From contig JBFMHR010000002.1 in assembly GCA_040751795.1 (NCBI GenBank), positions 192,001-256,000 of the forward strand: a stretch of 64,000 nucleotides of DNA. Reading direction: 5' to 3'. The position numbers and the translations under genes were made by a program. Position 1 is the stretch's first letter. Each line of letters starts with the position of its first letter. The notes below the pieces were generated by a model. That model saw only the letters and a program-made list of their open reading frames with translations, was not told where the DNA came from and searched no databases. Below, one piece after another: positions 2,302-40,800 of the stretch. The DNA comes from Thermoplasmatota archaeon (lineage in GTDB: Archaea > Thermoplasmatota > Thermoplasmata > UBA10834).

Positions 2302-3627
2302 TCACCCTCTCGGCCTTCCGGCGACGGCCCTCTTGAGCTTCAGCACGACGTCCTGGGGCGACCGCCCCAGCAGCCTTATCATCGGCTCCTTGCCGACCCC
2401 GCCCCTGTCGAATATGGCGTCGGGGACGCTCCCCCGCCTGTCTATGGCGTCCAGGACTCCCCATGTCATGGAGGAGACGCCCCTGGGTTCCTTCGCCCTG
2501 TCGAAGGACGCGACCGAGAGCTTAGCCCTCCTGCAGAGGGAGAGGTTGTCCTCGGAGTACTTGATGTTCATGGCGCACCTGGCTTCCGGGTCCCTGGACG
2601 ACGCGGCCAGCACTATCCTCGCGACGTGCTTCGACGCGCCGAACCTGGCGCAGCCTATCCTCTTGGCCCTGGTGCCGCACCTCGCTATCCTCCCCTCGAA
2701 GGCCGCGACCTCGTCGGGCTCAAGGGCTCCCAGGACAGCATAGCCCATGTTCGTGCCCACCTCGGGCAGCAGGGACGCGTCCATGGTCTCCTCCAGGAGG
2801 GCGGCGGCGTCTTCCAGCTCCTGCAGCATGGACGCCTTCTGCGCCTCGATCCTCAGGATCGCCAGCGGGTTGGCGCAGGGGACCCCGAGCCCGACCCTCT
2901 CCCTCGCCAGGACCGCCTTGTATATCATCGACTTGGACGTGCGGACGGCCTCCTCCAGCTCGAGGCCGAGGGCGAGGTTCCCGGCGATGAGGGACGCCAG
3001 GGTGCAGCCGGTCCCGTGCACTTCGACGTCCAGCCTGGGCGAGGCGACCTTGACTGTCCTGCCGTCCCAGCAGAGGTAGTCCGCCGCCTCGGAGCCCTTG
3101 AGGTGCCCCCCCTTCACCAGGACGGCGTCGGGGCCCAGCTCCAGTATCTCCCGGGCGGCCCTCTTGGCGCTCCTCTCGTCCCTCACCCTGACGCCGGACA
3201 GCCGCTCCGCCTCCGCGAGGTTGGGGGTCACGAGCGCGCTCATCGGCAGGAGCCTGGATATCAGCGCCTCCACGAAGCCCGCGACGTGCAGCTCGCTCCC
3301 GGTCGTGGCGGCCATCACCGGGTCGACCACGATCGGCGCGCGCACCCCCTTGAGGCCGGTGCTGACCGTCCTGACGATCTCGGCGCTGTAGAGCATCCCC
3401 GTCTTCACCGCGTCCAGCTTCACGTCCTCCAGGACGGAGTCGAGCTGGTTGGCCACCTCCCCCGGGGGCACCGGGAAGATGGACGAGACACCCCTGGTGT
3501 TCTGCGAGGTGACGCAGGTGACGACGGAGCAGCCGTGGACGCCTAGGGCCTCGAATGCCTTCAGGTCCGCCTGGAGCCCCGCCCCGCCAACGGAATCGGA
3601 GCCGGCGACGGTGAGCGCGTTCGCCAT
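2302..3627 (-). CDS. thiD: Bifunctional HMP/HMP-P kinase with C-terminal ThiN thiamine-phosphate synthase domain (ThiDN)
   Basis: [31 protein letters not shown]; ThiN motifs [23 protein letters not shown]. Confidence 0.93.
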
Positions 3628-38867: not shown

Positions 38868-39575
38868 GTGGACCTAGAGTGCGTCTTCAGGAGGGTGGGG
38901 AAGCAGATCTCGGCGGACAGGGTCTCGGCCGAGTTCCACCCGTACAGCGAGCTCAAGCACACCTGGAGGCACAGGCGGGGCACCGTCTTCTTCCGCATTA
39001 GCGACTACATGGACGCGTCCCCGGAGCCGGTCGTCGAGGCCCTCGCCTGGTTCCTCCTATGCCGCGCCTACGGGAAGAGGTGCCCGGACGGCATGGCGGG
39101 GAGGTACCTGGAGCACGCGCGGTCCAGGGAGATGTGGGCGCCCAAGAAGCCGGTCTACATGGGCAGGGCGCGGAACCTGGCCTTCAGGCCCGTGGGCGCC
39201 CACCGCGACCTCGGCGCGGTCTTCGACTACGTCAACTCCTGCTACTTCGGCGGCTCGATAAGGCGCCCCGACCTGGCGTGGGCGAGGGAGTCGCCGTCCG
39301 TGAGGCTGGGGTTCTACTTCGAACCCCTCGACATCCTGGCCGCGAACCGCGCGCTCGACTCGGAGAAGGTGCCCAGGTACGTCCTGGAGTTCGTCATGTA
39401 CCACGAGCTGCTCCACGGGGTCTTGGACGCCAAGGGCACCCCGACCCGGCGACTGCACCACACGAAGGAGTTCAGGGAGAGGGAGCGGCGCTTCTCCATG
39501 TACGACGAGGCGGAGGAGTGGCTGTCGAGGCTGGCCAGGCGGAAGCGGGCCGAGAAGGGTGTCCCCCAGGTGTAA
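38868..39575 (+). CDS. YgjP/SprT-like zinc metalloprotease domain protein
   Basis: YVLEFVMYHELLH...HTKEF. Confidence 0.8.
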   Translation: MDLECVFRRVGKQISADRVSAEFHPYSELKHTWRHRRGTVFFRISDYMDASPEPVVEALAWFLLCRAYGKRCPDGMAGRYLEHARSREMWAPKKPVYMGRARNLAFRPVGAHRDLGAVFDYVNSCYFGGSIRRPDLAWARESPSVRLGFYFEPLDILAANRALDSEKVPRYVLEFVMYHELLHGVLDAKGTPTRRLHHTKEFRERERRFSMYDEAEEWLSRLARRKRAEKGVPQV

Positions 39576-39770
39576 CAGCGCGGTTCATGGCATGCGCACG
39601 CACTCTCGCCGCCCTGACCCTCCTGGGGGTTTTTGTGGCACGCCACGTTGTCCCCTACACACGCCTCGGTGTCGCACCGGTGGTTCATAGAGGGACCCAC
39701 TTATGGCGCACTGTCGCCTGGTGTCGGAACACTGCATCATCGGGTCCGCAGCATTTTGTTTCCAGGCACG
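39557..39770 (-). ncRNA. Three-hairpin H/ACA pseudouridylation guide sRNA
   Basis: Three stem-loops, each followed by ACA (plus-strand TGT at 39712, 39634, 39560); GA/UGA K-loop or K-turn motifs; upstream AAAGCGATATAT promoter-like element; hairpin 3 pocket complementary to the 23S H69 consensus. Confidence 0.8.
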
Positions 39771-39906
39771 TGTGGTTACGAAGCTCCCTGGATATATCGC
39801 TTTCCCCCCCTGGGGGAGGGCCTCGAGGGCACTGGCGCGGCCCGCCTGGCAGGGGCTGGGGCCCCCTCCAATCATTTTTATAGCCTTAAGTCATCTATAA
39901 AAGACG

Positions 39907-40800
39907 ATGGCAGCGCTGATAGGCTGCTCGGGGTGGTCCTACGACGACTGGGTGGGCCGCTTCTACCCGACCGAGCTGGCGAACAGGAAGGGTGAGTGGT
40001 TCGCGTACTACTCAAGGTACTTCCCCACGGTCGAGATCAACTCCACCTTCTACAGGGTCCCCAACGAGTTCATGGTCCGGTCGTGGATCGAGAAGGGGCG
40101 GCAGAGGATGGGCTTCGAGTTCTCGGTGAAGCTGCCCCAGATCGTCACGCACGACTCGATCCTGAAGGACTCCCCCGACACCGCGGCCGCGCAGGCCAGG
40201 AGCTTCGAGGAGATATGCGTGACCCCCCTCGCGGAGGCGGGGCTGCTCGGCGGTGTGCTCATCCAGATGTCCCCGTACTTCAGGCTCGAGGACCGCGGGA
40301 GCCTCGGCAAGCTCAGGGCCCTCTTCCAGATGCTCGGGACGGACAGGTACGACTACGCGGTCGAGTTCAGGCACAGGTCGTGGCTCAACGAGAAGGGGAA
40401 CGAGCTGGCCTCGGACGCCCTGGAGGTCCTCCAGGAGTTCAAGGTCGCCAACACCATAGTCGACGGGCCGGGCTTCCCCATAACCCGCTCCCTTACCGCG
40501 AGGCACGCCTACGTCAGGTTCCACGGGCGGAACTACGACATCTGGTACAGGGAGGAGGACGAGGACGACTTCCGCCTCAACCGGTACGACTACCTGTACA
40601 CGCACGAGCAGCTCTCGGAGTGGGAGCCCCGCCTGGGCGAGATAGTCTCCAACTGCGAGAAGGCCAGGGTGTACTTCAACAACCATGGCAGGTCCAAGGC
40701 GGTGAAGAACGCCTTCCAGATGATGGACATGCTCGGCATACCCCACGAGGCCAGGGACGTCGTGATACAGGACCAGATGACCCTCGGCGGGTTCGAGTGA
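39907..40800 (+). CDS. DUF72 (YecE-like) protein
   Basis: IGCSGWSY, VEINSTFY, FSVK, VEFRHRSW, YVRFHGRN, YDYLY, YFNNH. Confidence 0.92.
   Translation: MAALIGCSGWSYDDWVGRFYPTELANRKGEWFAYYSRYFPTVEINSTFYRVPNEFMVRSWIEKGRQRMGFEFSVKLPQIVTHDSILKDSPDTAAAQARSFEEICVTPLAEAGLLGGVLIQMSPYFRLEDRGSLGKLRALFQMLGTDRYDYAVEFRHRSWLNEKGNELASDALEVLQEFKVANTIVDGPGFPITRSLTARHAYVRFHGRNYDIWYREEDEDDFRLNRYDYLYTHEQLSEWEPRLGEIVSNCEKARVYFNNHGRSKAVKNAFQMMDMLGIPHEARDVVIQDQMTLGGFE

Follow-up and report, generated by a model that had tools for sequence, protein, structure and literature searches.

A probable three-hairpin box H/ACA guide RNA conserved across Thermoplasmata, with predicted targets in helix 69 and the A-loop of 23S rRNA

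Three-motif box H/ACA small RNAs (sRNAs) are described as Pab40 in Pyrococcus abyssi, Pf7 in P. furiosus and Afu4 in Archaeoglobus fulgidus in the available text of Muller et al. (2008, PMC2377435). That text gives rules for archaeal H/ACA motifs (helix H2 measures 5-6 bp, and the target U lies 14-15 nt from the ANA box) and reports that motif 3 of Pab40 efficiently modifies in vitro position 2016 of P. abyssi 23S rRNA, which it places in stem-loop 69. The accessible parts of Grosjean et al. (2008, PMC2584109) equate this position with H. marismortui 1956, and report that its modification is made in vitro by Pab40 and Afu4, whereas that of the 1958 equivalent is not. Here we describe a related locus on the minus strand, at about 39770-39555, of a 64,000-nucleotide stretch of DNA (the window) from a Thermoplasmatota archaeon of the class Thermoplasmata (GenBank GCA_040751795.1, contig JBFMHR010000002.1, positions 192,001-256,000). 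The locus has the anatomy of a three-hairpin box H/ACA RNA, each hairpin with a lower stem, an internal pocket, an upper stem, a kink-turn (K-turn) or K-loop, and an ACA box.

Halobacteria, including Haloferax volcanii, carry a two-hairpin relative with a long spacer. According to the available portions of PMC2584109, its HP2 is the homologue of Pf7 stem III and a guide for helix 69 pseudouridines, proposed for two uridines, its HP1 is homologous to stem II, with H. marismortui 2621 as the proposed target, and a stem I homologue is missing. Eukaryotic H/ACA small nucleolar RNAs, which we liken to the present RNA by description and without sequence comparison, act by the same mechanism on the same functional regions of large-subunit rRNA, but have two hairpins with H and ACA boxes and lack a K-turn. 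The eukaryotic guide for the A-loop is snR10. For helix 69 sites, snR191 and U19 are named in the accessible text (PMC2584109). A full-text search of a limited literature collection returned no report of H/ACA guides in Thermoplasmata.

Anatomy and conservation of the locus

Every element that had been placed here by a first-pass annotation made from the letters of the window alone (a promoter-like sequence, three hairpins, ACA boxes and pockets) is indeed present on the minus strand, at the coordinates given below. The three motifs follow one another in tandem, each a stem-pocket-stem hairpin directly followed by ACA. The upper helix has 6 pairs in every hairpin, and the distance from the top of the pocket to ACA is 15, 15 and 14 nt in hairpins 1, 2 and 3, respectively. 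This geometry fits the rules given in the available text of Muller et al. (PMC2377435) for both helix length and the ANA-target U distance. A K-loop in hairpin 1 and a K-turn in hairpin 3 have the expected letters; the K-turn of hairpin 2 is a variant in the source genome. Upstream lies the promoter-like element AAAGCGATATAT (39803-39792), composed of AAA (39803-39801) and the TATA-like hexamer ATATAT (39797-39792), with the A/T hexamer some 28 nt before the first paired base of hairpin 1. Of the 27 homologous loci that were aligned, 26 have AAA and a TATA-like element at 27-30 nt before hairpin 1. A sigma-70 scan found no promoter, a result not relevant to an archaeon, and the terminator-like matches of the bacterial scan were on the wrong strand or outside the RNA.

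What settled the matter was comparison with relatives. Of 41 genomes searched at the DNA level, 27 yielded the locus, among them 24 of 24 from the family of the source organism, and we aligned 26 of these homologues. In the alignment, the drawn helices are paired in 93.6% of cells. Compensatory changes occur in 18 of 53 pairs, against 6.5 ± 1.6 in shuffles (none of 500 reached the observed number) and 3-6 in controls where the partner was slid by 1-3 columns. The covarying helices, eight in all, are spread over the whole element (1-2 in hairpin 1, 3-5 in hairpin 2 and 6-8 in hairpin 3), and each is kept by compensatory changes. While the stems covary, the columns that do not vary belong to the pocket strands, the ACA boxes and the letters of the K-turns. 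Invariant in all 26 sequences are GGGUCAG, UGUUA and GGGGGACA of hairpin 3, the GA/UGA letters of its K-turn, the pocket letters UGGG and ACAA of hairpin 2, and the ACA boxes after hairpins 2 and 3; ACA follows hairpin 1 in 21 of 26. The features on which the first-pass annotation had rested its case are thus conserved in relatives.

Of 151 genomes sampled from the class, 116 gave a single full-length match to a covariance model, R1, built from the family alignment; this tally includes one unpublished genome (G116). All 15 sampled genomes of the same family matched, and in one family none of 12 did. In a sample of 151 genomes from the phylum, R1 matched 59, of which 45 belong to other classes. 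Among 21 class-wide matches, whose alignment was fitted to R1 and so favours the structure, 37 of 52 pairs carried compensatory changes; shuffles gave 28.5 ± 2.2, with none of 500 reaching the observed number, and slid controls gave 10-19. GGGUCAG of hairpin 3 was present in all 21. The model can be reused to recover the RNA across the class.

By analogy with the archaeal H/ACA system, the locus would be transcribed from its own promoter, resembling a B recognition element (BRE) and TATA box, as an sRNA of about 210 nt. Cbf5-Nop10-Gar1 would bind each hairpin at the ACA box and lower stem, and L7Ae would bind the K-turn or K-loop. The two pocket strands would pair with rRNA on both sides of a uridine, and Cbf5 would isomerise this uridine to pseudouridine. 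We infer the ends of the RNA and the protein binding; anatomy, conservation, covariation, complementarity, the protein genes and presence in RNA libraries were observed directly. The genome indeed encodes Nop10 (77.1 bits), the Cbf5-specific DKCLD domain (46.4 bits) and L7Ae (104 bits), all over their cut-offs.

The locus is also represented in RNA libraries. Four runs (X1, X3, X5 and X7), from four studies, yielded eight contig pieces of 77-199 nt, every one of them within 39572-39758. They are 95-100% alike to the window (three at least 99%, five 95-99%). Several of their loose ends resemble sequencing adaptors, and we did not take the contig ends at 39758 (in X5 with an adaptor-like loose end, in X7 without) as the 5′ end of the RNA. 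In the four aligned runs, no contig covered the flanks 39300-39571 and 39759-40100; we did not use this as evidence. A small share of the sampled words of the window occurs in 13 public runs labelled as RNA; the shares in runs beyond the four were likewise left aside.

Could the conserved block be a coding or DNA-level element rather than an RNA gene? The region is GC-rich and is crossed by open reading frames (ORFs) of 96 amino acids (aa) (39585-39875, minus strand) and 274 aa (39059-39883, plus strand), and the 3′ end of a neighbouring gene reaches into it. In addition, the folding energy is not better than that of shuffled sequences (z = -1.39; 21 of 200 shuffles fold as well). These points speak for such an element, yet the alignment contains gaps of 1, 2 and 4 nt within the block, which rule out the long ORFs crossing it. 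Eight helices are kept by compensatory changes, letter conservation coincides exactly with the ACA boxes, K-motifs and pockets, an Rfam H/ACA model aligns across the block, and contigs from RNA libraries cover it. We therefore regard a coding or DNA-level origin of the conservation as extremely improbable. Besides the folding energy, several observations weigh against a functional guide: the Gar1 match is weak (25.5 bits versus a Pfam cut-off of 29.3), hairpins 2 and 3 form their upper helices only with one bulged nucleotide each, and the RNA-library contigs, which probably come partly from close relatives, are silent on strand, ends and level. Since stems covary while pockets stay invariant, it is comparison with relatives, unlike folding energy, that decides for a real RNA. 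Of the three outcomes that the first-pass annotation had named as refuting its reading (a helix 69 that does not match, no detected transcript, unconserved ACA and K-turn motifs), none was borne out. Taken together, we put the probability that the locus is a genuine, class-wide conserved three-motif H/ACA guide sRNA at roughly 0.87.

A distant relative of HgcG and Pab40

At Rfam gathering thresholds, only tRNA was called across the window, and no H/ACA RNA. The Rfam scan proposed in the first-pass annotation, when run with an E-value threshold, gave HgcG (RF00064, also called Pab40) as the sole H/ACA model with E < 1. The model aligns to 39555-39780 of the minus strand over its positions 45-276 of 276, with 33.8 bits and an E-value of 1e-7. 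The gathering score of the family is 77; because the score lies below it, standard annotation misses the RNA. Two results tell against membership: the shortfall itself, and the absence of any match of the HgcG model in 14 control genomes. Within the alignment, the motif 3 pocket reads GGGUCAG/UGUUAC versus the consensus GGGUUAG/UGUUAC.

The three motifs stand in the same order as in HgcG, and the near-identical pocket of motif 3 is aimed at the same loop uridine of helix 69. Motifs 1 and 2 do not have the targets that they have in Pyrococcus (P. abyssi 2588 for motif 1, and 1932 or 2678 for motif 2). As in Pab40, motif 1 carries a K-loop and motifs 2 and 3 carry K-turns, and the predicted transcript start is the first base of motif 1, where the available text of PMC4652768 places the Pab40 start by RNA-seq. 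Unlike in Pab40, the motif 1 pocket of the source family is unrelated and without a target, and the motif 2 K-turn has G-U in place of G-A. The motif 2 pocket fits the A-loop, whereas in the accessible part of the literature motif 2 of Pab40 acts at P. abyssi 1932 and those of Pf7 and Afu4 are expected to act at 2678. The position aligned to P. abyssi 2678 and H. marismortui 2621 is C in the 23S rRNA of the source organism (its position 3323; U in E. coli), so the target of stem II and HP1 cannot exist there. On sequence grounds, the RNA is thus a distant homologue of HgcG/Pab40/Pf7/Afu4 and not a curated member of RF00064.

By this comparison, the helix 69 guide is common to Thermococcales, Archaeoglobus and the sampled phylum that contains Thermoplasmata, with changed targets in the other two motifs. 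Being a homologue of described RNAs for which the motif 3 product has been obtained in vitro, the RNA is less novel than the first-pass annotation implied. It is a solid annotation of a real guide RNA, not a new kind of system, and leaves the understanding of H/ACA guides unchanged. What it brings is a conserved non-coding RNA of an uncultured archaeal class that is missed at Rfam gathering thresholds, together with modest novelties: its occurrence in Thermoplasmata, a predicted A-loop target, a variant K-turn, and an orphan, re-targeted first motif.

Predicted targets in 23S rRNA

We scanned every uridine of the 23S rRNA, 16S rRNA and 34 tRNAs of the source genome for bipartite pairing with the pockets, leaving the U and the next base unpaired. 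In the shuffle test, the pockets were fixed and 5S rRNA was added (7,890 nt and 1,546 uridines in total), and 300 shuffled pockets were scored. The pairing of pockets with the organism's own rRNAs and tRNAs had been suggested in the first-pass annotation; it yielded sites with an unpaired 5′-UN-3′ for hairpins 3 and 2 and none for hairpin 1. For numbering, we aligned the target regions to an annotated 2,898-nt copy of E. coli 23S rRNA, in which positions are 4 lower than standard; we take the standard numbers of the aligned sites to be U1915 (helix 69) and U2555 (A-loop). We equated P. abyssi 2588 with E. coli 2496, and P. abyssi 2647 with E. coli 2555, by combining the published correspondence P. 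abyssi 2678 = H. marismortui 2621 with an offset between H. marismortui and E. coli 23S numbering, presumably 35.

Hairpin 3 (39629-39560) has a lower stem of CCCCCAGG (39629-39622) with CCUGGGGG (39570-39563), an upper stem of 6 pairs with one bulged purine, and a K-turn with GA (39607-39606) on the 5′ side and UGA (39587-39585) on the 3′ side. Its pocket is formed by AGGGUCA (39621-39615; the longer strand GAGGGUCA spans 39622-39615) and GUUACA (39576-39571; GUUAC, 39576-39572). ACA lies at 39562-39560, 14 nt from the pocket top, a distance made up of GUUACA and CCUGGGGG; both the strands and this spacing agree with what had been read from the window alone. Helix 69 of the organism's own 23S rRNA reads GGGGGUAAC-UA-UGACCCUCUU, and the single best bipartite match of the pocket is GUAAC-UA-UGACCCU at position 1962, with 5+7 Watson-Crick pairs, extendable by three pairs into the lower stem. 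None of the 300 shuffled pockets reached this score. In the E. coli helix 69 loop, position 1962 corresponds to the first U following GUAAC, and the target motif is present in the 23S rRNAs of 12 of 13 relatives. The helix 69 target proposed from the archaeal consensus thus held against the organism's own rRNA, and hairpin 3 very probably guides the first loop uridine of helix 69, the equivalent of E. coli U1915, as judged by pairing.

Hairpin 2 (39711-39634) has a lower stem of 9 pairs, GUGCGCCAU (39711-39703) with GUGGCGUGC (39646-39638), and an upper stem CCC(U)CUA/UAGGGG. In its K-turn, GA (39686-39685) on the 5′ side stands opposite GU (39660-39659) on the 3′ side, below the apical stem CGGUG/CACCG. 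The pocket strands are AAGUGGGU (39702-39695) and ACAAC (39651-39647), and the box is C followed by ACA (39636-39634), 15 nt from the pocket top. The best site of this pocket is GUUGU-UC-GCCCAUU at position 3292 of the own 23S rRNA, with 5+7 pairs, two of them G-U. It ranks top among the 1,546 uridines, and none of the 300 shuffled pockets reached its score. In the E. coli alignment, position 3292 falls on the second U that follows G in the A-loop (helix 92), and the motif is found in 12 of 13 relatives' 23S rRNAs. The A-loop, put forward only tentatively at first, thus gains support and can be narrowed to the U2555 equivalent. The base pairing makes it probable that hairpin 2 guides a uridine of the A-loop in general; that this uridine is position 3292, modified by canonical rules, we favour by a small degree.

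Alternative registers bear on both hairpins. By switching between pairings, hairpin 3 might guide the two helix 69 uridines (E. coli 1915 and 1917), as the available text of PMC2584109 proposes for the Pf7 stem III homologue of H. volcanii through alternative structures. At the second U, however, the 3′ strand of hairpin 3 gives only two consecutive pairs before a U-C clash, and the in vitro results with Pab40 and Afu4 mentioned above, in the accessible part of the same source, go against it as well; we consider dual guiding rather improbable and keep the U1915 equivalent as the predicted target of hairpin 3. The A-loop prediction is less secure. Its pairing requires that two potential pairs at the top of the pocket (G-C and U-A) be opened, and in other families the pocket top is 16 nt from ACA in the U2555 register. 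In three class-wide sequences, with pockets UCAAC or CCAAC, the top letter of the 3′ strand cannot pair with U2554. The K-turn, called degenerate in the first-pass annotation, has GU for GA on its 3′ (bulged) strand in 25 of 26 family sequences, and this could weaken L7Ae binding; UGA is kept in the sequence of sister family f2 and in 13 of 13 sequences of other families. These four points weigh against guiding at U2555, and more generally all targets given here are predictions from base pairing, as are the pseudouridines expected at them.

Hairpin 2 might then guide U2554 with three unpaired letters, or be inactive through its degenerate K-turn. U2554 is the position of the A-loop that is pseudouridylated in eukaryotes; the yeast A-loop pseudouridine is at its equivalent, one position 5′ of the predicted U2555 site. 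The 3′ strand CAAC still makes four pairs with GUUG at a 14-nt distance in this register, which the top-letter mismatch in the three class-wide sequences and the 16-nt distance of U2555 in other families would also fit; the G-U in the K-turn favours inactivity. A functional 5′-UNN-3′ interaction is reported in the available text of Muller et al. (PMC2377435). U2555, by contrast, is canonical, with 5+7 contiguous pairs, 15 nt to ACA, the top rank and the clean shuffle test. Moreover, the letter of the 5′ strand opposite G2557 varies only from U to C, by which the pair is kept or improved, and the family has fixed the variant K-turn without any change in the pocket, which argues for continued selection on guiding. 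Guiding at U2554 or loss of activity thus appears unlikely, and we retain U2555 as the predicted site of hairpin 2. The pairing satisfies the rules of Muller et al. for the RNA of the source organism. By numbering, the site would be P. abyssi 2647, the originally proposed target of Afu4 motif 2, which the accessible text of Muller et al. doubts on structural grounds (PMC2377435). Most likely, as far as pairing can tell, the RNA directs pseudouridine formation at two key sites of large rRNA, which predicts that Thermoplasmata 23S rRNA carries pseudouridines in both the helix 69 loop and the A-loop.

The target rRNA genes have a peculiarity of their own near helix 69. The 23S rRNA gene of the source organism (L001; G000:C12:61671-65296, minus strand), located on the same contig outside the window, is 3,626 nt long and contains a 698-nt insertion at 1979-2676 that is absent from the 2,928-nt gene of the same-genus genome G009. 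It begins 8 nt past the helix 69 segment that pairs with hairpin 3. Since it encodes a 219-aa LAGLIDADG homing endonuclease (PF00961, 87.9 bits), the insertion is very likely an rRNA intron. The length of other relatives' 23S genes, 3.18-3.65 kb, suggests further insertions. A pattern search did not find the helix 69 motif in the 23S gene of G010 (L040). In G026 (L035), the motif gives way at once to unrelated sequence (GACCCU, then UAGCA), pointing to a possible insertion immediately behind the segment that pairs with the guide.

The orphan first hairpin and the neighbouring genes

Hairpin 1 (39767-39712) has canonical geometry: a lower stem GCCUGG (39767-39762)/CCAGGC (39721-39716), a 5′ pocket AAACAAAA (39761-39754), an upper stem of 6 pairs (UGCUGC/GCAGUG), a K-loop GA ... 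UGAU (39747-39736), a 3′ pocket UUCCGACA (39729-39722), and a box of G followed by ACA (39714-39712), with 15 nt for the 3′ pocket, lower stem and spacer together. All 21 parsed sequences share the 3′ pocket sequence UUCCGAC, whereas their 5′ pockets vary freely. In the genus g4 (L022-L026), hairpin 1 has no ACA box, and three of the five sequences have also lost the K-loop letters, leaving a plain hairpin next to intact hairpins 2 and 3.

No target could be assigned to hairpin 1, in line with the first-pass annotation, which had named none. In 23S rRNA, 16S rRNA and the 34 tRNAs, there was no site with at least 10 contiguous pairs that respects the upper stem, and candidates with one mismatch, such as 23S 1738, were weak matches only. 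A wider scan, which added 5S rRNA, signal recognition particle (SRP) RNA, RNase P RNA and 150-nt rRNA flanks and allowed UN or UNN and registers of 13-16 nt, gave at best 6+3 pairs (RNase P RNA 266) and no convincing target. In the shuffle test with fixed pockets, one register had no site and in the other 36 of 300 shuffles were as good. The wider scan also gave 5-bp matches to the T-arm of two tRNA-Pro, and a scan of both strands of the whole genome gave one 7+3 site, about chance level by a rough estimate. The complement of the 3′ strand occurs at 25 genomic sites, none of them in a known RNA. CCGAC can form 5 pairs with GUCGG (equivalent to E. coli 2505-2509, in the peptidyl-transferase loop) at a 13-nt distance, with no 5′ arm and with C as the next base in one genus, and for these reasons we discarded it as a target. 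In the source family, hairpin 1 is thus an orphan guide without identifiable target, a further point against an RNA with three working guides.

The pocket is different elsewhere in the class. Most of 13 rows from other families share a 5′ strand ..GAAGR and a 3′ strand RGCAAG; the pocket of G033 differs, and in G026 hairpin 1 is degenerate. The pocket of G028, the sole genome so tested, matches CUUGC-UA-CUUCG of its own 23S rRNA, and the target U aligns with E. coli 2496. By the numbering offsets, this would be the site of Pab40 motif 1 (P. abyssi 2588). As far as the alignment of these pockets goes, the motif 1 pocket is rewritten or replaced in the source family relative to other Thermoplasmata. 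That hairpin 1 of the source family and of one sister-family genome is a re-targeted guide, with a substrate outside the known stable RNAs of the assembled genome, is a tentative and rather doubtful proposal; the hairpin may act on an unrecognised RNA, interact through one strand (3′ guide only) or have a chaperone-like role in 23S folding.

The switch of the hairpin 1 pocket coincides with an unusual change beside the old target, in the peptidyl-transferase loop of the family's 23S rRNA. At positions 3240-3241 of the own 23S rRNA (compared with relatives L031-L041), the loop reads CGCCGUCGGUUC in eight of nine family genomes and CGCUGUCGGCUC in the ninth, CGAUGUCG.. in E. coli and in G028 of another family, and CGCUGUCGG in G026 of the sister family. 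The family has C and C at the positions aligned with E. coli A2503 and U2504, which we take to be the standard numbers; to our knowledge, A2503 and U2504 are near-universal.

On the opposite strand, an ORF of 235 aa (38868-39575, plus strand) overlaps the RNA at 39560-39575. Its stop codon TAA (39573-39575) lies inside the 3′ pocket strand of hairpin 3, which bears out the antisense overlap with the last codons of this gene described in the first-pass annotation, and the RNA pocket and these codons therefore constrain each other. The product of the ORF had no Pfam match at E ≤ 0.001; it contains an HELLH motif. A DUF72 gene also neighbours the RNA, and close relatives of this gene sit at the same position beside the RNA.

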